The notes: generated by a model not told the origin, from the letters alone. Positions 2,361-58,079 are shown, counted from the first letter of the stretch. The stretch is DNA of 64,000 bases from Candidatus Levyibacteriota bacterium (GCA_018062815.1 JAGORM010000001.1:87029-151028), one strand, 5' to 3'. Translations and numbers: made by a program.

Positions 2361-2581
2361 TTTTTAATATATACCATATTATCAAAGGATACGAATTCAA
2401 ACAAGTAATTAATCAAGTGCAGTTGGGAAAAAAACATGCACTGGTATTGACAAATTGGCAGTCTATGTGATAGAGTGATAATAGATATAAGTTTAAGATA
2501 TCAGTGATAAATATTACTCATTGATAGTTTAAATTTTTAATAAAAAGAATAACACTTTTTGAAAGATTGGAGGTGAAAACT

Positions 2582-3016
2582 ATGGCAATAATTCGTTGGA
2601 ATCCTTGGAATATTGACAGATTTTTTGAAGACGATTTTGATTTACCTACCATCCCTGGAATTTCAAGATTAATGGGTCAAGGGTTAAATCTTTATGAAAC
2701 TGAGGAATCAATAATTTCAGAAGCAGCGCTTCCCGGCGTTTCAGAGGATAAGATTGATGTGACATTTGAGAACGGAGTAGTTCGTGTTACTGCGTCAATT
2801 GAAGATAAGAAAGAAGAAAAGGAAAAACGCAGGTATTTTATGAGTTCAATGACATCCTCATTTAATTATTCATTTAGAATCCCTGAAGGTGTTGTAGAGA
2901 CAAGCGAACCTGAGGCAGTCTTAGAAGATGGAGTGCTTAGATTAACGTTTAAAAAAGTTGTGAAGAAAGAACCTAAGAAAATAAAAGTATCTAAAAAGGT
3001 GAAAAGTATAAAGTAA
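2582..3016 (+). CDS. Small heat shock protein, Hsp20/alpha-crystallin family
   Basis: Alpha-crystallin domain pattern (WNPW..., ...VDVTFENGVVRVTA...LEDGVLRLTF). ATG at 2582 preceded by GGAGGTG at a 6-nt spacing; the track start at 2567 is a TTG. Confidence 0.85.
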   Translation: MAIIRWNPWNIDRFFEDDFDLPTIPGISRLMGQGLNLYETEESIISEAALPGVSEDKIDVTFENGVVRVTASIEDKKEEKEKRRYFMSSMTSSFNYSFRIPEGVVETSEPEAVLEDGVLRLTFKKVVKKEPKKIKVSKKVKSIK

Positions 3017-13768: not shown

Positions 13769-13813
13769 AAATTTAGAACCTACGCAAGATTGAAATGAGA
13801 GGAAAAAAGGACT

Positions 13814-13849
13814 TGACAGACCTTAGCAGTCATGTTATATTATTGCTAA
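13814..13849 (+). promoter_or_regulatory. hrcA promoter (TTGACA-16-TATATT) with overlapping CIRCE-like inverted repeat TTAGCAGTC-N9-TATTGCTAA
   Basis: -35 at 13814-13819. The IR TTAGCA...TGCTAA (13823-13849) matches the outer arms of the CIRCE consensus TTAGCACTC-N9-GAGTGCTAA and overlaps the -10. Confidence 0.6.
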
Positions 13850-17176: not shown

Positions 17177-17234
17177 TCCCCATTTTCCTTTTGTAGATAA
17201 TTTTCCTGATTTTTAGAGTGTATTTGGGTAAGGC

Positions 17235-17924
17235 TTAATCTGAATGCGCTATTTTTTTTGGGATAACTATTTTCTTTATTGATTCAACCATTCCTTTGTG
17301 GGCAAGCTTATTAAATAAGCGACGGGCCTCTCTCTCTGATGCATGATAATCAAAGAAATTATTTGTTTTTTTTGTAACTCCAACCCCTAAATCACCTAAG
17401 ATAACTTTCGTATTTCCATTCGCGTCTAGGATAAAAAAATATGTGTCTTCGTATATATTAAAGCCAGCTCTATCTGCCTTTTGTGAGATTTCAATAAGTT
17501 GCGTTTTAACACTTTGTTTATTTTTTACAATCGCCTCAAAGTCTATTGTTTTATTGTGTATATCATTTGTTGAGAAAACACATTTTTTACCACCTTCAGT
17601 CAGGTCCGTTATTATTATTTTGTTAGATCCTTCGACTTGCCTAATGGTTAAAGGTACAGGTAGGTCAGCTTTTTTTAATTGCAGGTAGTGTTTTATGTAT
17701 TCGTCAGGAACATAAAATTCCCATGCCCGGGCATATTTTGTATCTCTTTCTGCAAATTCTCCTACCGTTCTTTCCCTTCCATTTTTTACAAGTATTAGTT
17801 CTCGGGTCACATATCTTGCTTCATTACCACTTCCGATATATCTACTGTTTTCCCCAAAAAATACTTCTGATTTACGACCTGTTAGGGGAGAAAATAATGT
17901 TTTTCTTTCCTTACCTTCTGGCAT
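17235..17924 (-). CDS. Hypothetical protein (no recognisable domain)
   Basis: 229-aa intact ORF convergent with dnaK and divergent from the pilin-like gene. No motif recognised. Confidence 0.5.
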   Translation of the reverse strand: MPEGKERKTLFSPLTGRKSEVFFGENSRYIGSGNEARYVTRELILVKNGRERTVGEFAERDTKYARAWEFYVPDEYIKHYLQLKKADLPVPLTIRQVEGSNKIIITDLTEGGKKCVFSTNDIHNKTIDFEAIVKNKQSVKTQLIEISQKADRAGFNIYEDTYFFILDANGNTKVILGDLGVGVTKKTNNFFDYHASEREARRLFNKLAHKGMVESIKKIVIPKKIAHSD

Positions 17925-17964
17925 GAGTACTATTGTAGCAATAATTGTGCTTCCTTTGTAGGAT

Positions 17965-18276
17965 ATGCTAGTATTAATATGTATGGAATGTGCAGCAAAT
18001 GAAATATTAACAGAGTTAGGTTGCCTACCAGATGATCCGATAGGTTTTGTCCAAAAGTTTTATGGATGGGGGCTGTCTCTTATAGGGGGTGTTGGGGTGC
18101 TATTTCTTATTTACGGAGGTTATCACATATTAACATCCGGTGGAAATCCAGAAAGATTACAAAAGGGTAAAGAATATATTTATTATGCAATTGCAGGGAT
18201 CGTCCTGGCAATTTTTGGATACGTATTTATAGAATTTATCGCAGGGTCAGTACTTAGAATTCCTGGATTTTCATAA
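17965..18276 (+). CDS. VirB2/TrbC-like (CPR-type T4SS-like) pilin candidate: two-helix hairpin protein
   Basis: 103 aa. Two hydrophobic helices (GWGLSLIGGVGVLFLIYGGYHIL and YYAIAGIVLAIFGYVFIEFIAG) separated by a TSGGNPERLQKGKE loop. Immediately followed (8 nt) by a polytopic VirB6-like membrane protein. No N-terminal signal peptide is seen; an in-frame upstream stop precludes extension. Confidence 0.4.
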   Translation: MLVLICMECAANEILTELGCLPDDPIGFVQKFYGWGLSLIGGVGVLFLIYGGYHILTSGGNPERLQKGKEYIYYAIAGIVLAIFGYVFIEFIAGSVLRIPGFS

Positions 18277-18284
18277 TTTTTACC

Positions 18285-20447
18285 ATGTTAAAACAACTGC
18301 CCATATTGTTTTTTTCAACGCTTCTTTTTTTGGTATTTTCCTTTCATGCTAGCTATGCTCAATCAACATCAGTTGTTAATCTCTCTGGTAATCCCTCAGG
18401 AGCTGTAAACGTTAGAATTGCGGATGACTCAGATCCGGTTCAAATTGATGACTCAATTACTCCAACGATCGGAGATTGGATACCTGATTCAACAGTAACT
18501 TTTGTGGGAAAAACTGCAAATAGAGCTGGAGATTTTCTTGATTGGACTATCAGAAATTATGATTGGACTTGTGTAAAAACTAATACCGGGTCATGTACGA
18601 GTTCAGGGAATCCGTTGGTAGGGTTTTGGGCATTGATTAGAAATATTGTTTACGCACTTCTTGTTATATTGGTTTTGGTTGCCGCGTTTGTAATGATAAT
18701 AACGCGTGGTAGAAACATAACAATTACCCGTTTTATCCCACGTTTTATATTTATTATTGTTTTAGTAACCTTATCATATGCTCTCGTACAATTTATTTAT
18801 CAAGTGACGGATATTATTCAGGGATTTTTTCTTAGAACTGATGGAAAGCTTATATCTACCAAAGACTTAATATTTATCGGATTTGATTATAAAAATTTTG
18901 AGGGAGCAAGACGATACGGTTCCCAGTATGATGAATCCGCTTTTATCACCCTTTTACTGGTACGGCTTACGGCGCTTACCTATTATGTTATGACTGGGGT
19001 GTTGTTGGTAAGAAAAATTATTTTATGGTTTTTTATTATCTTGTCTCCTGTTTTTCCGCTTTTGCTTTTTTTCAAGCCAATAAGAAATACGGGTAAGATA
19101 TGGGTGGGTGAGTTTTTCAGATGGTTATTATATGCGCCTCTGTTTGCAATTTTTTTACAAGGGTTAGTTGTATTATGGAAAAGTAAGGGAGGTATACCAT
19201 TAGCATTTGATTTTACAAACGTAGGGAATGTTATTTATCCGACAGCAGTAAACATTTTGATAGGTGGTCCTGGGCAAAAGATATTTTTTGATACTGAAAC
19301 AAGCTCCAACAGCGTTAATTTACAGGACACATTCGCGCTATATGTTGTAGCACTGTTAATGTTATGGGTTGTGATTATACTACCATTCTTGCTTCTTAAA
19401 ATTTTCTTAGATTACTTAGGTGGGTTATCCCTTCAAGATAATGTTACAATGAAAAGACTTCTGAATCGCGGATCTGAATTCTTACCTCTTAACCGTCCTC
19501 CTGCCCCTTCCCCATCTGCTCCACTCCCTCCGTCGCAGGGTGCAGGTAGGGCAATGCAAATACCATTTAATGCTGCTGCCTCCCGAAGCATATCTGAAAA
19601 TAGAACAATCAGTTCAGCACAGTCTAATCGTTCAATAACATCAATTCCTGTTAACGCACAGATATTGCAACTCGCAAACTTATCAGTGCCAAAAATGCGA
19701 GATATTGCCCGCTTTGAAACATCTATGGTAACCCATAATTCATCAAAGATGCAGGACGTTTCCAGACTTAAAACATCACTTACAAGAATTTCAAATCCGT
19801 CTACTATTACTGCCCCATTAGAGAGAGAAAGATATACACAAGTAAAACAACAATTAATGTCAGAAAAACAAAAAGGCAACGTTCTAGCTTCCTCAATTTT
19901 GACTGCAGCAAATACGACTGCCGCACCGTACCAAAAGGGAATGGTGTCATCTCAACAAGTGCATTTGCCACAGGCAAATAAAGTTCAACAAGTAAGTATA
20001 GAGGACTATGAAGAAGTAAGAAAAATGTGGCAAGATACGTATCAAAACTCAACTCCTCCAACTGATCTTTCGGGAAAGAAAGATTCAAGAGAGGAGTGGA
20101 TTAAAGGAGATATAGATAAAATTAATCAAGCTATAACACTTTTAAATTCAGTTGATCCTGTAAGAACCCAAGAGGGAATGGATATGGTTTCAAATATACT
20201 TCCGTTCTTAATGATTGGTGGATTCTCCAAGACTGAAGTTATAGCTTATCTCAAGGCTAAATTAGAGGCAGCCAAAGATGTTCTTTCAGCAAGTTCAAAG
20301 AAAAACGAAGAAGATGATACCATGATGGATCGTGAAGAAAAAACTGCAACCACACAGAAGCATATGAGTACCCATGCTGAGGCAGAAATCCCAACAGTAG
20401 ATGATGGTGCAAAAAAACTTGAAGATTTAAGAAAACAAGGATTATAG
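18285..20447 (+). CDS. VirB6/TrbL-like polytopic membrane protein with long hydrophilic C-terminal extension
   Basis: Signal peptide, roughly 90-aa exported domain, then about 6 TM helices. C-terminal half of about 350 aa begins with a Pro-rich segment (NRPPAPSPSAPLPPSQ) and is otherwise polar and S/T-, K/E- and Q-rich. Confidence 0.35.
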   Translation: MLKQLPILFFSTLLFLVFSFHASYAQSTSVVNLSGNPSGAVNVRIADDSDPVQIDDSITPTIGDWIPDSTVTFVGKTANRAGDFLDWTIRNYDWTCVKTNTGSCTSSGNPLVGFWALIRNIVYALLVILVLVAAFVMIITRGRNITITRFIPRFIFIIVLVTLSYALVQFIYQVTDIIQGFFLRTDGKLISTKDLIFIGFDYKNFEGARRYGSQYDESAFITLLLVRLTALTYYVMTGVLLVRKIILWFFIILSPVFPLLLFFKPIRNTGKIWVGEFFRWLLYAPLFAIFLQGLVVLWKSKGGIPLAFDFTNVGNVIYPTAVNILIGGPGQKIFFDTETSSNSVNLQDTFALYVVALLMLWVVIILPFLLLKIFLDYLGGLSLQDNVTMKRLLNRGSEFLPLNRPPAPSPSAPLPPSQGAGRAMQIPFNAAASRSISENRTISSAQSNRSITSIPVNAQILQLANLSVPKMRDIARFETSMVTHNSSKMQDVSRLKTSLTRISNPSTITAPLERERYTQVKQQLMSEKQKGNVLASSILTAANTTAAPYQKGMVSSQQVHLPQANKVQQVSIEDYEEVRKMWQDTYQNSTPPTDLSGKKDSREEWIKGDIDKINQAITLLNSVDPVRTQEGMDMVSNILPFLMIGGFSKTEVIAYLKAKLEAAKDVLSASSKKNEEDDTMMDREEKTATTQKHMSTHAEAEIPTVDDGAKKLEDLRKQGL

Positions 20448-20497
20448 AGTAGACTTGCAAAAAAAGAATAAAATCCACATAATATAATACACTGCCT

Positions 20498-23161
20498 ATG
20501 TTCGGAAATTTATTTAACACAGCAAAACAAGATGACCAGATAGTGACACACAATACAAGGGTTGATATTGATAACCCTATGCTAGGGGGAGCAAATATTT
20601 CCATTAACTCATCAGGTAATCCAAGTCAGATACAACCCTCCCCATCAATTTCCCAGAACCCTGTAGGGATGGACCCACAAAAAAGAGAAAACATGTTTGC
20701 TTTATCCCGCCTTGATCCACGATCACTTCAAGTTCTTCATCATGCTCAGGAGGAAACCAAGCGATTGTCTCAGGAGTTTATTAATCCGGAGCAACTACTT
20801 TTAGGACTTTTTTATGATGGGGATGTTTTTCGCATATTAGAACAATTTAATGTAGATGTTGCAAAATTAACCCATGAGATTCAAGCAAAAGAAAGGCCTG
20901 GTACTTTTTCGGGACAGCCCACTATGGGGCCAAGCGTTGTTAAGATATTTGATGAGGCATATTCAAACGCAAAAAAAAGAGGTGCTTCATTTGTCTCCCC
21001 TGAGGATATAATGGTTGCGCTTTTTTCTGAAACATCAACCTCTGAATTCTTAAAAACATTTGGTGTGCAGAGAGATAAATTAGAGGAAAAATTGTCTAAA
21101 TCTACAGGCTATGTTTCATCTTCAAGAAAAAGCGTGTTAGAAAAATACGGTATTGACCTGACTCAGGAAGCAAAGGACGGCAAGTTAGATCCTATTGCCG
21201 GCCGCGAGCGGGAAACAGAGCGTTTGATTCACATACTATTAAGAAGAACCAAGAATAATCCGATAATTATTGGCGAGGCGGGAGTGGGAAAGACAGCAAT
21301 CGTTGAGTCGCTTGCTCTTAAAATCGCAGAAGGGTCGGTTCCTCACGACCTTTTAAATAAGCGAATTATTCAACTGGAGCTTGCTTCACTGGTTGCAGGA
21401 GCTTCACATAGGGGTGAGTTTGAGGAAAGATTGCAGGACGTGATTAAGGAAACACAAGCATCAAATGGCCAAGTAATATTATTCATAGATGAAATTCATA
21501 CTCTTATCGGGACAGGGGACACGCAAGGAGCTATGGATGCTTCAAATATAATAAAACCATATTTAGCAAGAGGGCAGTTGCAACTTATCGGAACCACAAC
21601 TACTGCTGAGTACCGTAAATATTTTGAAAAAGATAAGGCCTTTGAAAGACGTTTCCAAGCTGTATTAGTTGACGAGCCGACTGAAGAAGTTGCCGAGCAG
21701 ATGCTTGAAGTATTAAAACCCAAATATGAAAAATTTCATTCAGTTGAGATTACTCCAGAGGCGATTAAGGCGGCTGTTCATCTTTCAAAAAAGTATATAG
21801 GAGAAAGATACTTACCCGATAAGGCTGTTGACTTATTAGATGAAGCGGCAGCAGAGGTAAAATTGCAGCATACAGAAGGAAAAAGACAGGACAATAAGGT
21901 CATAAAATCAGACATAGAAAAAGTCGTGTCCGCATGGACTGGAATTCCTATAACTCGTCTCACTGAGGATGAATCTCAAAAGTTAATTCACCTGGAGGAT
22001 ATCATTCACAAACGATTAATTGATCAAGAAGAGGCAGTAGCTGCAGTATCTGAGGCGGTAAGACGTGGGAGGATTGGTCTTGCAAGTGCAAACAGGCCAA
22101 TAGCATCATTTATCTTTTTGGGTCCAACTGGAGTTGGAAAAACAGAGTTGGCAAAAACTCTCGCGGAGATTTTATTTGGAAGGGATGATCTTATGATTAG
22201 GCTTGATATGTCAGAATATATGGAAAAGCATGAGGTTGCAAAACTTATTGGAGCTCCTCCAGGATACGTTGGGTACGAAGAAGGTGGACAGCTAACAGAA
22301 GCGGTACGTGCAAAACCGTATTCAATAGTGCTCTTAGATGAAATAGAAAAAGCTCATCCAGATGTATTTAATATTTTACTTCAGCTACTTGAAGATGGAA
22401 GACTTACTGACAACAAAGGGAATACGATATCTTTTAAGAATACTATTATTATCGCAACGTCAAATATAGGATCTTCACTTATTCAACAAACTCTTTTAAC
22501 TCAAAGCTCAAACGCAACGCAGGTGGTTTCTCCTGCTGAAGAAGCAAAAAGATTTTCATCTCTATCAAAAACCCTGATGGATGAGTTAAGAAAATTTTTT
22601 AAACCAGAGTTGTTAAATCGATTTGATGAAATAGTAATGTTTAAACCATTGCGTCAGCAAGATATGATGCAGATTGCAAAAATAGGCATATCTAAGACAC
22701 AAAAATTATTAGCGGAGCAAGAGATAAACCTAACTATAACGGAGAAAGCATTAGGTGTATTATCAAAAGAAGGATACGATCCTGTATACGGAGCGCGTCC
22801 GTTAAGAAGACTTATACAGTCAGCAATTGAAAATCCAATTGCGATACTACTTATTAATAAAACTTTTACCGTGCACGATACTGTTCAAATTGATTATGAT
22901 GATGCAAAGGCTCAGTTCACATTTACAAAGTTGACACAGCCAGTGGACAAACAGGAACAGCAGCCCATACCCGCGTCCTCAGCACAAGTTGCAACCCAAC
23001 AATCTAATATGGCAGCAGCTGGTTCGGTTGAAGCAGCAAATGGGAATGGAATTTTATCTGATATCGCAAAGGAACATTCGGCTGCTATCCCTCCTCCCGT
23101 ACAATCTGCGCCCCCAATGTCATCTGTTGACTCAAGTGGTACTATAATGCAACCTGCCTAA
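20498..23161 (+). CDS. ClpB-like Hsp100 AAA+ ATPase lacking the M-domain, with N-terminal extension and Q/A/P-rich C-terminal tail
   Basis: Two Clp_N repeats. D1 Walker A GEAGVGKTA and Walker B ILFIDEIH. D2 GPTGVGKTELAKTLAE, Walker B VLLDEIEKAH. ClpB-like D2 segment TSNIGSSLIQQ with no ClpP-binding IG[FL] loop. Only about 28 aa separate ...DLLDEAAAEVKLQ and VVSAWTGIP, where ClpB carries a roughly 120-aa coiled-coil M-domain. Confidence 0.8.
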   Translation: MFGNLFNTAKQDDQIVTHNTRVDIDNPMLGGANISINSSGNPSQIQPSPSISQNPVGMDPQKRENMFALSRLDPRSLQVLHHAQEETKRLSQEFINPEQLLLGLFYDGDVFRILEQFNVDVAKLTHEIQAKERPGTFSGQPTMGPSVVKIFDEAYSNAKKRGASFVSPEDIMVALFSETSTSEFLKTFGVQRDKLEEKLSKSTGYVSSSRKSVLEKYGIDLTQEAKDGKLDPIAGRERETERLIHILLRRTKNNPIIIGEAGVGKTAIVESLALKIAEGSVPHDLLNKRIIQLELASLVAGASHRGEFEERLQDVIKETQASNGQVILFIDEIHTLIGTGDTQGAMDASNIIKPYLARGQLQLIGTTTTAEYRKYFEKDKAFERRFQAVLVDEPTEEVAEQMLEVLKPKYEKFHSVEITPEAIKAAVHLSKKYIGERYLPDKAVDLLDEAAAEVKLQHTEGKRQDNKVIKSDIEKVVSAWTGIPITRLTEDESQKLIHLEDIIHKRLIDQEEAVAAVSEAVRRGRIGLASANRPIASFIFLGPTGVGKTELAKTLAEILFGRDDLMIRLDMSEYMEKHEVAKLIGAPPGYVGYEEGGQLTEAVRAKPYSIVLLDEIEKAHPDVFNILLQLLEDGRLTDNKGNTISFKNTIIIATSNIGSSLIQQTLLTQSSNATQVVSPAEEAKRFSSLSKTLMDELRKFFKPELLNRFDEIVMFKPLRQQDMMQIAKIGISKTQKLLAEQEINLTITEKALGVLSKEGYDPVYGARPLRRLIQSAIENPIAILLINKTFTVHDTVQIDYDDAKAQFTFTKLTQPVDKQEQQPIPASSAQVATQQSNMAAAGSVEAANGNGILSDIAKEHSAAIPPPVQSAPPMSSVDSSGTIMQPA

Positions 23162-23185: not shown

Positions 23186-24940
23186 ATGCAAAGAATATTT
23201 CATGTGTTACGGCGTATTGATACCCGTTTTTTTCTCTTACCCTTTTTATTATTTGCATTTGGAGCAATCGGATATTTAGGTATCCAGGGGGTTTTTTTTC
23301 AAAAAGATAAAATATTTCCACAGGGTGTACGGTATATTCCGGATCAAATAATAGTCAAATATAAAATTGGACAATCTCCAGATGAGCTTCAGAATGCAGG
23401 GAAAACAGAAGATAGAAAGGTACTGTTGTCTGCACTATCAAATGTTGGAGTTTCTTCTCAAAAGAGGTTGTACGTGTCAGAAAATTCTTTGCTTGAAAAT
23501 TATTATGTATTAACTCTCAAGTCTGGTTTTACAGTCCCAGATGCATATAGCAATATTAAAAAGATACCTGAAATAGAAAGTGCTGCCCCTGATTATATAT
23601 TAAAAATACAGGAAGCCCCAAATGATCCATATTACCCATCTATGTGGAATCTTTCTAAAATTGAGGCAGAAATGGTGTGGAATAGAGTGCATGTAGATGG
23701 GAAGGTTATAGTTGCAGTTATAGATACAGGAGTTGACTATCAACACGAGGACTTACAAGACGTGGTAATAAAAGGTAAAAATTTTATTTCTAATGATAAT
23801 AATCCGATGGATGATCAGGGGCATGGGACTCATGTTGCAGGAATAGCTGCTGCAGTTACAGATAATGGTATAGGAATAAGTGGGGTCTCCTGGGGGGCTA
23901 AAATTTTGGCTATTAAGGCGTGTGATAAAAATGGAGACTGTAGTACGGCAAATGTTTCAAGAGCTATTCAGTATGCCGTAGACAACAATGCAAAAATTAT
24001 TAATGTCAGCATTGCAGGGAGCGGTTCATGTAACGGAACGTATACTGATGTATTAAGATATGCATTAAGAAAAGGTGCAATGGTTGTTGTTGCTGCTGGA
24101 AACGGAAATAATGGAGACGGAATAGGTGTGGATGTAGAATCTCAAATACCTGCATCATGTGAAGGCTCTATCGCAGTGGGTTCAATTACAGCAGAAGGTA
24201 AAAGATCAAATTTTTCTAATTTTGGTTCTAAGGTTGAGATTTCCGCTCCCGGCGGCGCTGGACCTTGTACAATTGAGAGTTGTATTATTTCTACTAGCAT
24301 TAACAACTCATACTCACTTCGTTCTGGGACTTCTATGGCCGCCCCTCAGGTAAGTGCTGTTGCTGCGCTCCTTTTGTCCAATGATAGAAATCTTTCTATG
24401 TCAAAAATTCGTTCCTGTATTCTAAATGGTGGGAACAGTCTTCAAACAGATAAAAATATCGGGCTTCTTTTGAATGCTCAAAATTCATTGAGTATATGTA
24501 CTAAAACTGAACCTACCCCCACCCCAAAAAATATTAATAATATGTCATCTATTGCAGGTACAGTGTTTATTGACACTAATAAAAATAACAAATTTGATTC
24601 AACAGAAAAAACATTATCATCTGTCCAGATCATTTTATCTGGCTTAACTAATGATAGTGTAATAAGTAATTCAAAAGGAAAATATTTATTTTTGAGATTA
24701 CCAAGTGGTCAACACACAATATCTGCGACATTAAACGGGAAAAGCGTAATTACACCTATTAATATTTCTGTTGTATCAAACAATGCTGCTCAGCTTAATA
24801 TACCTGTACCCTCCGAAAAGGTAATTATTAAGCCAACACCTTCTGTTAGTGAACAAAAAACCTCTTCTCAATGCTTTGTCGATCCAGACTGCTTGAAAAG
24901 CAAGAAGTCAGTTCAAATATGTTCTTTTCAATGCGAATGA
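23186..24940 (+). CDS. Membrane-anchored subtilisin-like serine protease (peptidase S8) with C-terminal Cna-B/SdrD-B-like domain and Cys-rich tail
   Basis: N-terminal TM helix. Catalytic triad motifs VAVIDTGVD, GHGTHVAG and GTSMAAP. TPTP linker, then GTVFIDTNKNNKFD...KGKYLF...GQHTISAT resembling B-type repeats. C-terminal CFVDPDC...CSFQC. Confidence 0.85.
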   Translation: MQRIFHVLRRIDTRFFLLPFLLFAFGAIGYLGIQGVFFQKDKIFPQGVRYIPDQIIVKYKIGQSPDELQNAGKTEDRKVLLSALSNVGVSSQKRLYVSENSLLENYYVLTLKSGFTVPDAYSNIKKIPEIESAAPDYILKIQEAPNDPYYPSMWNLSKIEAEMVWNRVHVDGKVIVAVIDTGVDYQHEDLQDVVIKGKNFISNDNNPMDDQGHGTHVAGIAAAVTDNGIGISGVSWGAKILAIKACDKNGDCSTANVSRAIQYAVDNNAKIINVSIAGSGSCNGTYTDVLRYALRKGAMVVVAAGNGNNGDGIGVDVESQIPASCEGSIAVGSITAEGKRSNFSNFGSKVEISAPGGAGPCTIESCIISTSINNSYSLRSGTSMAAPQVSAVAALLLSNDRNLSMSKIRSCILNGGNSLQTDKNIGLLLNAQNSLSICTKTEPTPTPKNINNMSSIAGTVFIDTNKNNKFDSTEKTLSSVQIILSGLTNDSVISNSKGKYLFLRLPSGQHTISATLNGKSVITPINISVVSNNAAQLNIPVPSEKVIIKPTPSVSEQKTSSQCFVDPDCLKSKKSVQICSFQCE

Positions 24941-25911: not shown

Positions 25912-26250
25912 ATGGGTATTCTGTCCTATCCCTTTCTAGTGGTTTTGTTTTGGTATAAAGAAGGTTTATTACGATTATTGCTTTACTTCCGTTCATTTGA
26001 TGACTACTGTATACGACTATTTTCTCTGCATGGATTATTTTCAAGCTACTTTAAGCCTTTAAAAAACGAATACAGAAAGAATCTTGTTTTATTCTCGGTA
26101 TTTTTTGGGATGGTAGTTAAAACGTTTCTAATTATTGTCTCACTTTCTATATTGTTTATAGTTTTACTATTTGAAGGATTATTAATTTTTATCTATGTTC
26201 TTTTTCCAGTCTTGCCTTTATTTATTATATTCCTATCTAAATACTTATAA
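25912..26250 (+). CDS. Hypothetical small polytopic membrane protein
   Basis: 112 aa, 3 predicted TM helices, 6 nt upstream of the membrane-anchored Clp-like ATPase. Confidence 0.45.
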   Translation: MGILSYPFLVVLFWYKEGLLRLLLYFRSFDDYCIRLFSLHGLFSSYFKPLKNEYRKNLVLFSVFFGMVVKTFLIIVSLSILFIVLLFEGLLIFIYVLFPVLPLFIIFLSKYL

Positions 26251-26256
26251 ATCCAA

Positions 26257-28626
26257 ATGAAAAATTTTGACATGTTTAATTTATACGTTTTTTATAATAA
26301 TGTGTTCGTAAAGGCATTTCGGTTTTTTGCACTTTTGTTTTTGACAATAGTCTTGTTTTATGTAAGAAATGACCTATTTCTTTTTAGAATAATTCTTAGT
26401 TTCTATGTGTTATATCTTGTAAATGAAATTTTTGTCCATTTTAAAATTAATAAATCAAGTCCGCTTAATACAGTAAGCATTGATAGCAATCTGCCTCAGT
26501 TGGCTATATTGTTTAACGTAAGATATTTGCTTAGCATAAAAAATAATAATTTCTTTATTGAAAAATTGATAAAACAGAAAGACGTTGCATTTTTTATTGC
26601 AAAAATTGATGGGTTTGATTCTTCCTCAGCTCAAGTTAATGTTATAGGTTTGTTAAATAGAGCACGTTCTTTAGCGCAAATCTGCAAAGGAACTTACATT
26701 ACGGCAGCTGATATATTTGCAGCCTATCTTCTTTTGACAGAAAGCGAAAGCCACCTTTTGGAGCAGAAAGAACTAACGGAAAACGATATATTAGAAATAC
26801 TTTTATGGTGTAGAGAAAAGTACAATCTAGATAAAGTAAATTTTATTAATATGCATTTTACAGGAGCAGGCGTTTTTGACTTTTTTATATATGGTTGGAA
26901 CACTCAATTAAAAGAATTCTCGTTTGATTTAACATACAGTTTAATCGGAAAAAATACATCTCCTATTGTAGGAAGGGAAAAAGAATTTTCTCAGATGGTG
27001 GGAATACTTTCAAAAAATTCTACAAACAACTTATTAATAATAGGCGAACCTGGAGTTGGAAAATCTTCACTGGTTTCGTTTTTGGCTCTGGAGGCATACA
27101 GAAATACAAGGTTTATTTTGCACAACACAGTTGTATATGAACTTCTTGTTGATAGATTGCTTGCGGGGGTGTCTGATGCAGGAGAACTGGAGACGCGTCT
27201 AGGGTTATTGCTTTCTGAAATAGAACATATTGGAAATGCTGTACTTTTTATTCAAAACATGGAAAATATTTTTGGGGCAGGCGGATTTGGTTTTGATATG
27301 TCAGGCATATTATTTTCTTATTTAAAAAATGGAAAGGTGCAAATAATAGGTACAACAACTCCATCTTTTTATAAATCAGTTATTGAAAAGAAGTCTAGTA
27401 TTATGAGCTTATTCGAGTTGTTAAGATTATATGAGCCTGATCGTGATGTTTCATTGCGGATGATTGCAGCCCATGTTGATAATATTGAACGGGAGTACAA
27501 TGTAAGCATATCATATAAGGCAATTCATGAGACATTAGAATTGGCTTTCTCATTTCTCCCAGAAACATTCCTTCCGGGTAAAGCAATACTTCTTCTTCAT
27601 GATGTTTCATCCAGGGTAAGACTTGCGGGAAGAAATCGGGTCGAGAAAGAGGACGTAATACAGTTTGTTCAAGAGAAGACAAACATTTTACTTGAGAGAC
27701 CAGATATAGATGAGAAAAAAGTTTTATTATCCCTTGAGCAAGAATTACATAAGAGAATAATAGGACAAGATGAGGCAGTAATTGCAATTTCAAAGGCAAT
27801 AAGAAGGCTAAGAAGTGGTTTTTCTCAGAATAAACGTCCTATTTCCACCTTTCTTTTTCTAGGTCCTACTGGAGTAGGGAAAACAGAAACTGCAAAGGCT
27901 TTATCACAAATTTACTTTGGGGATGAGGCAAATATGATAAGGCTTGATATGAGTGAATACCAAACGCAAAATGAGGTAGATAGATTATTAGGCGGTGTTC
28001 CCGGGGGAATTGAAATAGAAAATTCACTGCCTGAACAGGTTAGACTTCATCCCTTTTCGCTCATATTGTTAGATGAATTTGAGAAGGCACATCCACACAT
28101 ATTAGATATATTTCTGCAAATTTTTGAGGATGCTCGGCTTACTGATAATAGCGGAAGAACGGTTTCATTTAAAAATACCATAATTATTGCAACAAGCAAC
28201 GCTGGGTCAGAATCAATTCGTGAGATGATGCATGAGAAGAAAGATCCTGCTTCATTAAAGAATATTTTAGTAGAGGCTCTACTTAGAGATGGAGTGTTTA
28301 AGCCTGAACTACTAAATAGATTTGATGATGTGATTATTTTTACACCACTCTCTTCTATTGAGGCAGCTGAAATTGCGAAACTTATCCTTGCATTATCATT
28401 AAAGTCTCTTGAGGACGATCAAATTTACATTACATTTGACGATAAGGTTAAAAATAAAATAGTGCAAGAGTCGTTTGATGAAGAGGCGGGCGCTCGGAAT
28501 ATGAGAAGGTATGTGGGATCGACAATTGAAGATTATTTATCAAGGCTTATACTGGAAGATAAATTGAAAAAGGGAGCACATGCTACTTTGACAGTCGACG
28601 AGAACAACAATTTTGTATTACAATAA
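26257..28626 (+). CDS. Membrane-anchored Hsp100/Clp-like AAA+ ATPase paralog: N-terminal TM helices, degenerate D1 (Walker B DE replaced by QN), intact D2, no M-domain
   Basis: 2 N-terminal TM helices (FRFFALLFLTIVLFYV, LFRIILSFYVLYLV) and a degenerate Clp_N-like segment. D1 Walker A GEPGVGKSS but Walker B AVLFIQNMENIF (27253-27258 = CAA AAC). D2 GPTGVGKTETAKALSQ and ILLDEFEKAH, and TSNAGSE. No ClpP IGF loop. Confidence 0.75.
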   Translation: MKNFDMFNLYVFYNNVFVKAFRFFALLFLTIVLFYVRNDLFLFRIILSFYVLYLVNEIFVHFKINKSSPLNTVSIDSNLPQLAILFNVRYLLSIKNNNFFIEKLIKQKDVAFFIAKIDGFDSSSAQVNVIGLLNRARSLAQICKGTYITAADIFAAYLLLTESESHLLEQKELTENDILEILLWCREKYNLDKVNFINMHFTGAGVFDFFIYGWNTQLKEFSFDLTYSLIGKNTSPIVGREKEFSQMVGILSKNSTNNLLIIGEPGVGKSSLVSFLALEAYRNTRFILHNTVVYELLVDRLLAGVSDAGELETRLGLLLSEIEHIGNAVLFIQNMENIFGAGGFGFDMSGILFSYLKNGKVQIIGTTTPSFYKSVIEKKSSIMSLFELLRLYEPDRDVSLRMIAAHVDNIEREYNVSISYKAIHETLELAFSFLPETFLPGKAILLLHDVSSRVRLAGRNRVEKEDVIQFVQEKTNILLERPDIDEKKVLLSLEQELHKRIIGQDEAVIAISKAIRRLRSGFSQNKRPISTFLFLGPTGVGKTETAKALSQIYFGDEANMIRLDMSEYQTQNEVDRLLGGVPGGIEIENSLPEQVRLHPFSLILLDEFEKAHPHILDIFLQIFEDARLTDNSGRTVSFKNTIIIATSNAGSESIREMMHEKKDPASLKNILVEALLRDGVFKPELLNRFDDVIIFTPLSSIEAAEIAKLILALSLKSLEDDQIYITFDDKVKNKIVQESFDEEAGARNMRRYVGSTIEDYLSRLILEDKLKKGAHATLTVDENNNFVLQ

Positions 28627-29638: not shown

Positions 29639-31720
29639 CTATAACAAGAAAGATCTCAATAATTTCAGTCTTGTGTAGAATGGTAGTGTTTTTATAAAAA
29701 TAGTTTTCACTAAGACTTTGCGTTTAGTTGCTCTAATTACAATAAAAATAGATAAGAAGGTCACTATTACAAAATATACCCATGTATCTTTTCTGTAATT
29801 GTCGTTTTTATATATGTATGCCCCTGCAATTTTTATTTCTTTCTTTCCTTCTGTTTTGTTGCCGGTTTTTGTTGTCGCAGCAAGTACTTTTCCATTTTTT
29901 CCAGAAGAGACTATAAAATAACTCTCTGCTGATGCATCAATTACAGTATCTTCTCCTGTGGTCCCAGTTACATAAGAAAGCGCCGTATAATTTCCCGCAG
30001 GTGCATTTTCTGTAAGAACTAGTCCTGTTGTTAATCTTTTAGTTTTCTGAGCCTCAATGTCATCAAGATCAAATGAAGGTCCTCCCATAAACTCTCCATC
30101 CTTATAAAGCCCAATTAATAATTTTGCTCCGTATATCTTTCCGGTTCCGTTATTTTTTGCATCTACAAAGAACGTAACAGTGTCGCCAGGATTTACGAAT
30201 TCGCCTACATTATTCTTATTTGTAATAGTGAGCTTTCCTCCAGACTCCTTAGAATGAATTTCTTTCTGACTTATATCATTTGATTTTTGTTCCTGCGTAT
30301 TTTCTTCCTGTATGTTTTCAGAAATAAACTTATTTGCTCCTCCTATGTTTCCTGCCCAATTCCCAAAAACATTAATAAAAGCAAAGAAACCATTCGTATT
30401 GAAAAAATTTGAGTTGATAAAGTTAATCAGCGATACCCCAGAATATGCATTCCCCGTGTGTATTGTTCCATTTTCACTCTGAATAGTGTTTTTACCTGTG
30501 TCCGCTTGAGCTGAGACATTATTTTGTATTATTGCTGTATTGTCTGTTTTAAGCGTTGTATCACAGTTACATTCAGCGGTGCTGTTTGAAAAATTTAATG
30601 TCTCGCCCCCTTCTTGAGGTTCAAAATTATCCCACCCTAAAAAACTACCAGTCCAATTCCCAAGAACATTTATAAATAATTTCTGAAACATTGCGCCTAC
30701 CGCGTTTGTGTTTACTATGTCTAAAATGTTTACAATGCTGTGTGATGTACCGGTTTTTATTGTTGAAGAAGATGTAGCAGTATCTATTCTGTTTTCTCCG
30801 GTGTTTGCGTCAGCAGTAACATTGTTTTCCATTTTAATATCATTTTTCATGGTTGCGGATACGCCACAGGATGCACATTCAGATTCATTGTGAAACTCAG
30901 GAAGGATTATATTGCCTGAAAAATCACCAAATATATTAATAGTGACAATGTGAATAACAGAATCAACAACAGTAAAATTTGCTTTGTTCATGAGTGAGAC
31001 TACAGAATACGCATTCCCTGTTTTAATAAGAGCATTGTCTCCTTCAGCTATTTCGTTTCCTCCTGTAGATGCAGTTGCAAGTACATCATTTGCAAGATAG
31101 ACATAATTCTTTGCATCAGTTACGGAAACGTTAACAATTGGGCTTGTGTTTTTATCCTGAGAAATAATTGTGTACGCAAGATTAAATGGGGTAGATAAAT
31201 CTATATTTTCTGCATTATCTACAAAGATATTAATAGTTTGATTTATAACTTGGGAATTAATTGAGTTTGTGTTTACTGTATTGTCAATTGATATGATTGT
31301 GGTTGCTTCCCCTGTAGTAATAGAAGAGCTTGAATTCTGTTGAGAAGTAGGCGGAGAATTTGGGGACGACTCAACAAGGGGAGTAGTTGAAGTTGGAGGA
31401 GATGATGGTTCTTCAGGATCAGTAGGGGTTAACTCAGCCGAGGGAGTTGAGACATTCTCACCGGTACTAGAAGTGGCGGTGGTTGTGTCAGTTGTTGCAG
31501 CTGTATTTGTTTGTGTTGTGTTTTCAGTGTCTTCAGTCGGGGGAGTAGTAGGAGTGAGTATTGTGGGAGTTATTGTCGGATCAATTTGCTGTTCTGTAGT
31601 AGGCGTAGGGGTGTTAGTTGGTATCTCATCAAGAGCATAGACTGAAAACGGTGAGATAGAGCTTACTCCTATAACAAGAAATATAATAAAAAGTGAGAAA
31701 TATCTTTTAAATCCTGCCAT
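29639..31720 (-). CDS. Secreted repeat protein (TGNAYS-type repeat family) with T/P-rich linker and C-terminal TM anchor
   Basis: Signal peptide. TPTP/T-rich low-complexity region. At least 3 copies of a roughly 80-aa repeat (...NVSAQADTGKNTIQSENGTIHTGNAYSGVSLIN..., ...NVTADANTGENRID...IKTGTSHSIVNIL..., ...TGGNEIAEGDNALIKTGNAYSVVSLMN...). C-terminal hydrophobic helix followed by basic residues. Confidence 0.6.
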   Translation of the reverse strand: MAGFKRYFSLFIIFLVIGVSSISPFSVYALDEIPTNTPTPTTEQQIDPTITPTILTPTTPPTEDTENTTQTNTAATTDTTTATSSTGENVSTPSAELTPTDPEEPSSPPTSTTPLVESSPNSPPTSQQNSSSSITTGEATTIISIDNTVNTNSINSQVINQTINIFVDNAENIDLSTPFNLAYTIISQDKNTSPIVNVSVTDAKNYVYLANDVLATASTGGNEIAEGDNALIKTGNAYSVVSLMNKANFTVVDSVIHIVTINIFGDFSGNIILPEFHNESECASCGVSATMKNDIKMENNVTADANTGENRIDTATSSSTIKTGTSHSIVNILDIVNTNAVGAMFQKLFINVLGNWTGSFLGWDNFEPQEGGETLNFSNSTAECNCDTTLKTDNTAIIQNNVSAQADTGKNTIQSENGTIHTGNAYSGVSLINFINSNFFNTNGFFAFINVFGNWAGNIGGANKFISENIQEENTQEQKSNDISQKEIHSKESGGKLTITNKNNVGEFVNPGDTVTFFVDAKNNGTGKIYGAKLLIGLYKDGEFMGGPSFDLDDIEAQKTKRLTTGLVLTENAPAGNYTALSYVTGTTGEDTVIDASAESYFIVSSGKNGKVLAATTKTGNKTEGKKEIKIAGAYIYKNDNYRKDTWVYFVIVTFLSIFIVIRATKRKVLVKTIFIKTLPFYTRLKLLRSFLL

Positions 31721-56912: not shown

Positions 56913-58079
56913 ATGAATGATAAAGGATATCCGCTTAATATGGGTGGATTAAATACAAACCCCTCAAGTGTCACTCTTCCAACACAAGATTCAATTCCGC
57001 CACAAAATAATTTAAACTCATCGGACAGCTTTCCTCAGATAACAAAACTTGAGCAATTGGTTTTAAAAGCTTCACTTCCCGTGGATTTACATGAAAAAGC
57101 TACGGGAATGATTCAGCGCTTAAAGCTTATTAGGCATGAATCAAGTTTTTTTATGGAGCTTGACCAGATAGGGCGATACATAGAATGGATAACTGCGCTT
57201 CCTTGGAATTCTGAAACAAAAGATATTTTAGATTTGAATCATGCAAGACAGGTTTTGGAAAAAAATCATTATGGTTTGCTTCAGGTGAAAGAACAGATAC
57301 TTCAATATTTATCTGTGATGATTATTAAATCGTCTCAGGGGGGGACAAAGGATCATTTTTCAAGAGCACCAATAATTTCTCTTGTGGGGCTTGCAGGTGT
57401 AGGAAAAACTACCATTGCGTACTCTATCGCGGAAGCACTTGGAAGGCGCATCGAGCGTATTCCATTTGGTGGTATGGGAGGTGCTGCTATCCTTAGGGGT
57501 CAATCTAGGTCTTCACCTGATGCTGAGCCTGGAGCGGTAATTAAGGCATTACGTCGTTCGGGAACAAATAATCCAGTCATTCTATTAGATGAGATAGATA
57601 GAGTATCGGAGGCTGCAAGAGGAGACATAATGGGTGTGTTAGTTGAATTATTAGATCCGGAGCAAAATAGAGCATTTACAGATCACTATATTGATTACCC
57701 TTTTAATCTTGGAAATGTTTTATTTGTCGCAACTAGTAACAACACCAAAGATATCTCTACAGCAGTTTTAGATAGATTAGAGGTTATTCAAATGCCTTCA
57801 TATGCGGACCTGGAAAAGATTACAATTGCAAAGAATTATTTACTTCCTAAAATTCTTGCAGAATCTGGATTTGTAGCAAATTCGGTATTAGTTTCGGATG
57901 CTGTTTGGGCAGAAATTGTACGACCTCTTGGGTATGATCCGGGAATTCGCTCACTTGCACGTGCGGTTCAGGATATGGTAAGAAAAGTTGCACTTTTTCA
58001 ATTAGATGGAAAATTACCAAAAGGGCAGCCGTTTAGTTTAACAGATCAGAATTTACGTCAATTTATACCCCAATGGTAG
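56913..58079 (+). CDS. Standalone Lon-like AAA+ ATPase module (no S16 protease domain, no full N-domain)
   Basis: Aligns by eye with the Lon segment from ...WNxxxK...HYGLxxVKxxILxYL through Walker A GLAGVGKT, Walker B ILLDEID, ...VLVELLDPEQNRAFTDHY..., ...LDRLEVIQMPSY..., sensor-2 GIRSLARAV. The ORF ends about 60 aa later, followed by a 118-nt gap and rnj. Confidence 0.7.
   Translation: MNDKGYPLNMGGLNTNPSSVTLPTQDSIPPQNNLNSSDSFPQITKLEQLVLKASLPVDLHEKATGMIQRLKLIRHESSFFMELDQIGRYIEWITALPWNSETKDILDLNHARQVLEKNHYGLLQVKEQILQYLSVMIIKSSQGGTKDHFSRAPIISLVGLAGVGKTTIAYSIAEALGRRIERIPFGGMGGAAILRGQSRSSPDAEPGAVIKALRRSGTNNPVILLDEIDRVSEAARGDIMGVLVELLDPEQNRAFTDHYIDYPFNLGNVLFVATSNNTKDISTAVLDRLEVIQMPSYADLEKITIAKNYLLPKILAESGFVANSVLVSDAVWAEIVRPLGYDPGIRSLARAVQDMVRKVALFQLDGKLPKGQPFSLTDQNLRQFIPQW

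Follow-up and report, generated by a model that had tools for sequence, protein, structure and literature searches.

Genes for a VirB2-like pilin and a VirB6-like membrane protein that lie side by side, apart from the ATPases of a type IV secretion system (T4SS), raise the question of what such a pair is and what could drive it. The pair considered here is encoded on the + strand of a stretch of 64,000 nucleotides from Candidatus Levyibacteriota bacterium (GCA_018062815.1, JAGORM010000001.1:87029-151028), called the window in the following. An initial annotation had placed in it two open reading frames (ORFs), at 17965-18276 and 18285-20447, separated by 8 nt, and had described them as a T4SS-like pair without any cognate ATPase. 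Coordinates, spacing and strand were confirmed, and the second statement held in part: no canonical T4SS ATPase is encoded in the window, but a Clp/Hsp100 gene that begins 50 nt past the end of the VirB6-like gene had been overlooked, and across species no other neighbour of the pair is as constant. The two proteins are very probably a T4SS-derived pilin and a protein of the VirB6 type, and there is little reason to doubt that the order pilin, VirB6-like protein, Hsp100 represents a conserved cassette in this lineage. A role of the Hsp100 as functional motor or partner of the two proteins, suggested by gene order, relocation of the genes as a unit and the unusual features of the ATPase, comes close to an even chance. 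The source names attached to homologues place the organism in Candidatus Levybacteria, of the class Microgenomatia (Patescibacteria/CPR, the candidate phyla radiation).

The two ORFs are not due to chance, because the searches returned 105 homologues of the pilin, with E-values down to 3.5e-55, and 627 of the 720-aa VirB6-like protein, none of the best 120 exceeding 1.5e-212. A total of 297 species-representative genomes encode relatives of the 720-aa protein, whose family comprises 575 clusters at 50% identity. VirB2-like pilins and VirB6 of Patescibacteria have been published previously; what appears to be new is the cassette with its Hsp100 partner. Neither is mentioned in PMC12102498 and PMC10633639, in each of which 'clp' and 'clpB' have 0 occurrences, and a full-text literature search for a link of Clp to VirB6/TrbL in CPR gave nothing relevant.

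The pilin and the VirB6-like protein

For the 103-aa protein (17965-18276) the topology of VirB2/TrbC had been claimed, with two hydrophobic helices and a short loop, and a comparison with pilin families had been proposed as a check. Both the topology and the relationship were borne out. In the Pfam search the protein matched T4SS_pilin (PF18895) with 34.3 bits against a cut-off of 26.6 (E 2.5e-8), and the same profile was matched by 24 of 25 orthologues. Over the two-helix core a weaker match, 29 bits against a cut-off of 40 (E 6e-7), was obtained with the NCBIfam model for the Mbov_0395 pilin-like family (NF045849). A holin or another family with two transmembrane segments, named beforehand as the competing identity, was rejected, since T4SS_pilin was the sole Pfam family at E<=1 and PHROGs gave nothing meaningful.

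The chain starts with an acidic N-tail of net charge -4, in which two invariant Cys residues lie in a beta-hairpin, and continues with helix 1, a basic loop (TSGGNPERLQKGKE, net charge +1) and helix 2. The hydropathy scan of the 103-aa form placed the hydrophobic helices on either side of this loop at residues ~32-57 and ~70-99. A second ATG at 17983, the start position used by most orthologues, yields a form of 97 aa, for which the AlphaFold model (pLDDT, the predicted local distance difference test, 87) contained the Cys-bearing beta-hairpin and helices at 19-50 and 56-90. When a hidden Markov model (HMM) built from the pilin alignment was run against the six-frame translation of the 64-kb window, the known gene alone was found and no further paralogue.

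The initial annotation had also stressed that the pilin has no signal peptide, that an in-frame stop at 17959-17961 prevents N-terminal extension, and that this is atypical for VirB2. The stop, a TAG two codons 5' of the first ATG, is present; 2-8 residues stand ahead of the first conserved Cys, and the leader that goes with T4SS_pilin is missing. The atypicality is real. Leaderless orthologues, consisting of the initial Met and 0-10 residues before the first conserved Cys, were found in ~66-70 of 80 species loci (~85%), and an in-frame stop shortly 5' of the start is common among them. A classical signal peptide occurs in ~10-14 of the 80 (~15%), and its predicted cleavage (e.g. AYA↓QS-C) falls exactly at the first conserved Cys. 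Because the cleavage in these forms falls at the same Cys, the leaderless pilins begin at the mature N-terminus of the others. The absence of the signal peptide is judged from these alignments to be real and derived, not an error. A frameshift or a signal peptide hidden in another frame was rejected, as the + strand ORF at 17723-17926 overlaps what looks like a real gene on the other strand and the leaderless start is kept in ~85% of the species. Prepilin peptidase belongs to type IV pili and not to VirB2-type pilins, and is hence irrelevant to the maturation of the pilin here.

The 720-aa product of the second gene (18285-20447) had been taken for an extended VirB6-like protein, and it is indeed a divergent extended VirB6/TrbL. 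Its signal peptide (aa 1-25, 18285-18359, cleavage SYA↓QS) was read from hydropathy, the pattern MKKxLPI...A-Q being conserved in the alignment. It is followed by an extracytoplasmic N-domain of ~85 aa (aa 26-110, 18360-18614), which is net acidic and contains Cys, frequently as a pair, together with the motif EVTFVGKxAxRxGxFLDWTLxNYxW. The polytopic VirB6/TrbL-like membrane core (aa 111-380, 18615-19424) is hydrophobic over aa 113-375 and has 5-6 membrane spans; the motif RNTxKIWxGEFFRW (aa 267-280) is near-invariant, the loop at 141-149 is basic and that at 173-222 acidic, and further spans extend to residue 375, which agrees with the polytopic arrangement of VirB6/TrbL, whose N-terminus is outside and which has a large extracytoplasmic loop after TM2 and at least 5 spans. 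All these elements, like the extension described below, lie on the + strand.

The assignment of the core was obtained from profiles and from structure. The Pfam TrbL profile (PF04610) gave 24.4 bits against a cut-off of 25.9 (E 2.9e-5) over aa 128-291, the same profile matched 14 of 23 family members at E<0.01, and some relatives carry a precomputed PF04610 assignment or the name 'type IV secretion system protein'. A sequence-profile search of the PDB with the family alignment gave no match. The AlphaFold model had a pLDDT of 85-93 across the membrane core, and in the Foldseek search against the PDB ranks 1-8 were all TrwI/VirB6 chains of R388 (7o3v, 8rt9, 8rtd), with prob 0.92-1.00, E from 7.5e-3 and a target-normalised template modelling score (TM-score) of ~0.5, every lower-ranked match having prob <=0.1. 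The R388 TrwI/VirB6-TrwL/VirB2 assembly, the stalk and pilus-assembly platform, is thus the best and sole convincing structural match of the core. It further resembles the pair in that the pilin gene adjoins the platform gene and that the pilin is a two-helix hairpin with a cytoplasmic basic loop. It differs in that the identity is 14-16% at a TM-score of ~0.5, in that the locus described here has no VirB5 tip, VirB3/4/8 or outer-membrane core, and in that the VirB6-like protein carries an extension of 340 aa (up to >2000 aa in the family) and the pilin no cleaved leader.

The C-terminal extension (19425-20447), delimited from family alignments, is hydrophilic and ~340 aa long. It consists of a Pro-rich, net-basic linker, a helical module (LANLSVPKMRDIARFETS ... 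IxNP...ER..Y...QKGN.LA.SIL) and a conserved end domain (VNKVQQVSIEDYEEVRKMW ... ILPFLMIGGFSKTEVIAYLKAKLEAAK), and neither Pfam nor the sequence search of the PDB gave a match to it. The helical module is duplicated in longer orthologues, the lengths within the family ranging from 400 to 2790 aa. Cys is all but absent from the extension: 66 proteins, with an average of ~560 residues each, contain 2 in total. The VirB6 of Agrobacterium has five spans in an N-out/C-in arrangement, and the loop charges of the protein studied here fit a 5-span N-out/C-in topology slightly better, which would probably put the extension in the cytoplasm and therefore within reach of a Clp hexamer. Extended VirB6 proteins, such as the Rickettsiales paralogues and TraG of the F plasmid, likewise combine an N-terminal membrane domain with a hydrophilic C-terminal domain of variable length (PMC12857230). 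Unlike theirs, the extension described here is built from a repeated, almost Cys-free helical module that is peculiar to this CPR family; there is no sequence similarity between the two.

The Clp/Hsp100 ATPase and the gene cassette

The third gene (20498-23161, + strand) encodes a double-ring AAA+ ATPase of 887 aa with Clp_N, D1 and D2 domains, recognised from Pfam, NCBIfam and PDB alignment as an atypical class-I Clp/Hsp100. Both Walker A/B pairs and the GYVG pore loop of D2 are invariant in 64 orthologues, and the pore loop of D1 reads SHRG in place of KYRG, with the His kept in 61 of the 64. The protein stays below every NCBIfam equivalog cut-off. ClpB (TIGR03346) gave 898 bits against a cut-off of 1232, in a split match that skips profile positions ~406-525, so that there is no M-domain; ~57 residues alone lie between the D1 lid and D2, and the PDB alignment to ClpC, ClpB and ClpA likewise shows the M-domain to be missing. 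The ClpA model gave 729 bits against 993 and the ClpV model 697 bits against 885, and no genes of a type VI secretion system (T6SS) were seen in the window. Conservation is poor in the region aligned with the ClpC loop (aa 661-690), which, by reading of the alignment, is without the ClpP tripeptide [LIV]-G-[FL]. Judged by its sequence, the ATPase is not a standard ClpB, ClpC, ClpA or ClpV.

Its N-terminus is equally distinctive. The motif M[FL]GNLFxxKK opens all 64 orthologues, and a Q/P/S-rich linker, variable in length, comes next; in the window the motif (MFGNLFxxxK) occupies 20498-20527 and the linker extends to ~20671. Across all loci the motif is confined to the N-termini of this Clp type, and in-frame stops stand 1-38 codons 5' of it, most of them within 16. 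The spacing of its hydrophobic residues (i, i+1, i+4, i+5) points to a short amphipathic helix that may bind the membrane or serve in docking. No transmembrane segment was found in the 887-aa protein, Pfam gave no match to its N-terminus, and a homologue search with the N-terminal 215 aa returned four fragments alone and was uninformative.

The gene order was compared among 80 loci, taken from different species, by tblastn with ORF calling. In 74 of 75 species loci the gene directly 5' of the VirB6-like one is a pilin gene, and in 59 of 63 the gene directly 3' of it encodes an ATPase of the 887-aa type, the intergenic gaps within the trio being commonly 3-100 nt. The trio is constant while its flanks vary, with DnaK or DnaJ upstream and an S8 protease, a 112-aa membrane protein (orf112) or others downstream. 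It stands in a hrcA-grpE-dnaK-dnaJ neighbourhood in 51 of 56 trio loci. The order in the window is hrcA, grpE, dnaK, a reversed gene of 229 aa, pilin, VirB6-like gene, Clp, S8 protease, dnaJ, a small transmembrane protein and a second Clp. Intact trios were also found outside the heat-shock cluster, in L006 beside ribosomal-protein genes and a two-component system, and in L092 beside greA, a restriction-modification system and a resolvase; L077 holds a second relocated intact trio. In the Daviesbacteria-like loci L049, L055 and L066 the same type of Clp directly precedes another T4SS_pilin gene (with a 4-nt overlap in L049), and after a reversed gene of 487 aa there follow three more pilins, then a VirB6-like gene and a SpoIID-domain protein. 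In Levybacteria and related Microgenomatia the three genes are passed on, and moved, as one unit, and they never adjoin virB4.

In the window no terminator-like site was found in the gap between the pilin and VirB6-like genes or in that between the VirB6-like and Clp genes, and weak promoter-like matches at 17918-17945 and 20455-20483 were no better than the shuffled background. Control of the trio by HrcA through the controlling inverted repeat of chaperone expression (CIRCE) found no support, as CIRCE-like elements occur only before hrcA (39 loci) and before an Hsp20-like gene, and in none of the loci before the pilin gene.

Neither VirB4 nor VirD4 nor VirB11 was found in the window, all ORFs with a P-loop/Walker A motif being accounted for by the two Clp ATPases, an ABC ATPase, a GTPase (IF2 by reading), a small AAA protein and FtsK, with chance matches in the ORF for the small subunit of carbamoyl-phosphate synthase and in a 2-hydroxyacid dehydrogenase. 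The flanks of the 80 related loci, which were fetched up to 8 kb on each side (up to 10 kb for L001-L007), likewise contained no VirB4-like Walker A ORF; the remaining large ones were rejected as candidates, being FtsK, IF2 and ABC-type. The absence of VirB4 applies to the window and these flanks, not to the whole genome.

Some further genes occur at the trio loci. In L030 (9998-11608), as well as in L035, L044, L052, L053, L064 and L074, the VirB6-like and Clp genes are separated by an inserted gene for a signal-anchored protein of 450-540 aa; this protein has the conserved C-terminus ...GFTVVEWGGMVKxDKNxPFTCSQ, belongs to no Pfam family and could be an accessory protein or a substrate. In L005 (3116-3889, - strand), L065, L076, L082 and L086 an extra T4SS_pilin paralogue of 238-420 aa is divergent from hrcA and shares with it the CIRCE-containing intergenic region. 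At 10270-14725 of L049, and also in L057 and L066, genes for a 560-aa SpoIID-domain protein, a 191-aa transmembrane protein, an 89-aa DUF5657 protein and a 624-aa protein lie 3' of the VirB6-like gene and before smpB; the 624-aa protein of L049 has one central transmembrane segment, and no Walker A motif or family was found for it.

A possible motor for the pair and its alternatives

The CPR-specific T4SS of monoderm Patescibacteria, as in Southlakia epibionticum (SEML1_0006-0019; survey by Quinonero-Coronel et al. 2025, PMC12102498; Wang et al. 2023, PMC10633639), resembles the locus in having VirB2-like pilins (PF18895/PF04956), often in arrays, and VirB6. It has no relaxase, is chromosomal and apparently housekeeping, and its VirB2-like pilins are unusual for monoderms. 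The T4SS with its pilin arrays and VirB6 is essential in S. epibionticum (PMC10633639; review PMC12857230), the sole genetically tested patescibacterium, where it and its pilins are required for epibiotic growth. Its pilins and VirB6 cluster with VirB4, VirB3/PrgI, TrsD and a VirB8-like protein, whereas the constant partner found here is a Clp/Hsp100. A weak similarity in the two-helix core links the pilin also to the Mbov_0395 pilin-like protein (NF045849) of the Mycoplasma integrative and conjugative element (ICE), from a wall-less or monoderm lineage with transfer genes of the mating-pair formation class FATA (MPF-FATA) type. Apart from the 29 bits against a cut-off of 40, the ICE differs in being mobile and in having VirB4/VirD4 homologues, while the cassette is chromosomal and vertically conserved.

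An evenly balanced case can be made that the pair is a VirB2/VirB6-type module from the Patescibacteria T4SS lineage, held in a conserved Hsp100 cassette in which Clp supplies the motor function. The pilin would insert as a hairpin with both termini outside and the basic loop inside, and the distribution of its charges is compatible with such an N-out/C-out arrangement. Helix 1 of the leaderless form may then serve as a reverse signal-anchor, and the N-tail, which is short, acidic and able to form a disulfide, would cross the membrane in the manner of the Pf3 coat. In the Pf3 coat and the M13 procoat the following hydrophobic helix and flanking positive charges drive a short acidic N-tail across the membrane, with no cleavable signal peptide involved; for the N-out topology of the pilin they offer a mechanistic analogy alone. 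The VirB6-like protein, with its N-domain outside, ~5 spans and a long extension that is probably cytoplasmic, would oligomerise, by analogy with TrwI/VirB6, into a platform or channel that collects the pilin subunits and lifts them from the bilayer. The Clp/Hsp100 hexamer, presumably with both rings active and without the DnaK-coupling M-domain or the ClpP loop, could be held at the membrane, or on the cytoplasmic modules of the VirB6-like protein, by the MFGNLF helix and the flexible linker. It might supply the ATP-driven pulling that VirB4/VirD4 provide canonically, either for the dislocation of pilins or for the unfolding and feeding of a protein substrate. Hsp100s do serve transport machines, namely ClpV/TssH in the T6SS, HSP101-EXP2 in PTEX of Plasmodium and Hsp93/ClpC in chloroplasts, with a specialised N-terminus and without ClpP. 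They are class-I double-ring Clp proteins like the one described here; the comparison is an analogy alone, the ClpV score lies below the cut-off and there are no T6SS genes. It is tempting to go further and to imagine an unrecognised envelope machine, in which a VirB6-type platform and a leaderless pilin are driven by a membrane-docked Hsp100 and not by VirB4/VirD4, the ATPases that define all known T4SSs. Such an Hsp100 would dislocate pilins or else pass unfolded protein substrates through the VirB6-like channel, as in the PTEX translocon; this bolder version is tentative and, on balance, unlikely.

Several points weigh against a Clp-driven module. The ATPase is linked to the pair by gene order alone, most loci stand in a heat-shock neighbourhood, where a Clp is expected anyway, and the sampled species are all of one class, so that shared ancestry inflates the counts. 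In L059 VirB6-like and pilin-like genes occur with no Clp within 8 kb downstream (the upstream flank being 2.9 kb), and the correlation between the lengths of the VirB6-like extension and of Clp was non-significant (Spearman rho 0.21, p 0.08). VirB4 may be encoded elsewhere in this genome. The orientation of the extension is uncertain, since a 6-span reading would put it outside, and the almost complete lack of Cys in it is likewise compatible with a domain exposed at the surface. The top Foldseek match of the pilin, the conjugation pilus of Aeropyrum pernix (8dfu), was non-significant (E 2.3, prob 0.54, TM-score 0.49/0.56), which is expected because any helical hairpin would behave in this way. 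Finally, we know of no precedent for an Hsp100 driving a VirB6/VirB2 module.

The alternative that survives best is a dispersed canonical Patescibacteria T4SS of MPF-FATA origin, with VirB4, VirB3, VirB8 and TrsD elsewhere in the genome, in Microgenomatia typically near dnaA, and with Clp as a chaperone neighbour by synteny or co-regulation; it is a possible explanation but a doubtful one. VirB4 is present in 2,417 of 3,035 Patescibacteria assemblies, and VirB2-like genes were reported in 1,948 assemblies, being near virB4 in 1,135 of them and away from it in ~800 (PMC12102498). The T4SS genes of Microgenomatia are more scattered (22.6% of VirB3 homologues near virB4), and their VirB6 was called 'scarce', 'suggesting extreme sequence divergence' (PMC12102498). 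Such scattering, and the 51 of 56 trios among heat-shock genes, speak for this alternative, and the trio-bearing L050 and the species of L035 are scored VirB4 'Yes' (PMC12102498). On the other side, VirB4 is listed in 20 of 44 Levybacteria assemblies (Table S1 part 8), whereas the neighbouring ABY1 and Paceibacteria are almost all positive, and two trio-bearing species, RIFCSPHIGHO2_01_FULL_37_33 (L036) and RIFCSPLOWO2_01_FULL_38_21 (L044), are scored 'No' (PMC12102498). As these negative scores come from draft metagenome-assembled genomes (MAGs), the absence is suggestive, not proof; since only 20 of the 44 assemblies list VirB4, a VirB4-less genome is plausible for the present organism. A mere chaperone neighbour would also have to be reconciled with the retention of Clp outside the heat-shock cluster (L006, L077, L092 and the L049 type), with a Clp that has a lineage-specific N-terminal motif and is without the M-domain needed for DnaK-coupled disaggregation, and with a pilin gene that is nowhere preceded by CIRCE.

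The same neighbourhood can be read as a membrane proteostasis module, in which the T4SS-derived pair was repurposed as an anchor or adaptor recruiting the Hsp100 to extract or remodel envelope proteins under stress, with the second, membrane-anchored Clp and the S8 protease perhaps also recruited. The location among heat-shock genes, two atypical Clp ATPases with membrane-targeting features in one block, the frequent neighbouring subtilase and the lack of other T4SS core genes nearby are in keeping with it. We consider it improbable, because the Daviesbacteria-type cluster has extra pilin paralogues and a SpoIID-type cell-wall enzyme, as a surface appendage or secretion apparatus would need, the pilin N-tail is conserved, extracellular and disulfide-capable, no CIRCE stands directly 5' of the trio, and no precedent is known to us. 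Hardly credible is a holin-like or generic two-transmembrane protein beside an unrelated polytopic protein, or an artefact hiding a signal peptide: the non-significant fold search of the pilin and a TrbL score 1.5 bits below the Pfam cut-off can be cited for it, but it is largely refuted by the T4SS_pilin match above cut-off with no holin or PHROG match beside it, by a structure search that picks VirB6 chains alone and by a leaderless start conserved, with in-frame stops upstream, across dozens of species.

To our knowledge VirB4 is regarded as the single universal, defining component of T4SS. If a whole class of these ultrasmall bacteria indeed kept a VirB2/VirB6 module tied to an Hsp100 and independent of VirB4, the pilin and platform part of a T4SS could be re-powered by a different family of motors, the VirB6 reported as 'scarce' in Microgenomatia would be supplied, and studies of surface structures and protein export in uncultivated CPR bacteria would gain a compact three-gene target. 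It thereby becomes possible to test if the pilin and platform of a T4SS can be driven by a motor other than VirB4. Even on a conservative view the locus provides a well-conserved, divergent VirB6 family under-detected by current T4SS profiles, a natural experiment in the loss of a pilin signal peptide, and a distinct Hsp100 subfamily defined by the missing M-domain, the SHRG loop of D1 and the N-terminal MFGNLF.

Neighbouring genes

The trio is followed by a signal-anchored subtilisin-like (S8) protease (23186-24940, + strand), identified by Pfam Peptidase_S8 and a fervidolysin-type prodomain and ending in a CarboxypepD_reg/SdrD-B-like domain; such a protease often, but not always, follows Clp and is sometimes duplicated. 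A second pair of genes (25912-28626, + strand), loosely associated with the trio, encodes a small transmembrane protein of 112 aa and a Clp-type ATPase of 789 aa. The latter is a double-ring protein without an M-domain, in which N-terminal transmembrane helices (aa 15-60) replace Clp_N. The 112-aa protein is conserved, has no Pfam family and always precedes the second Clp; among the 42 loci whose flank is long enough, 23 have the two genes 3' of the trio. Judging from the loci, these organisms possess two atypical Hsp100s, both membrane-directed, and lack a canonical ClpB.

A divergent gene of 229 aa (17235-17924, - strand), inserted between dnaK and the pilin gene, belongs to no Pfam, NCBIfam or PHROG family; its conservation is limited to the closest relatives, being 73-74% identical in L001-L004, L009 and L010 and of the same length in L089, and it is absent in the other species. 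A terminator-like hairpin at 17217-17250 follows dnaK. A strong sigma-70-like promoter (13813-13849; TTGACA-17-TATATT with TG) 5' of hrcA overlaps a CIRCE-like repeat, TTAGCAGTC-N9-TATTGCTAA, and a second CIRCE-like site (2455-2481) lies 5' of a 149-aa gene (2567-3016) that is putatively Hsp20-like by size and position.

Elsewhere in the window a 693-aa protein (29639-31720, - strand) begins with a signal peptide and was matched by none of Pfam, NCBIfam and PHROGs, and a 388-aa single-ring AAA protein (56913-58079) has a low-complexity N-terminus and a Lon-type lid. Among the database entries, many Levybacteria and Microgenomatia contigs (L009, L011-L013, L017, L019 and others) are publicly titled 'uncultured Gammaproteobacteria bacterium', and some proteins are labelled Acidoferrales, Sulfotelmatobacter, Xanthomonadales or Saccharimonadales, which are evident MAG mislabels.

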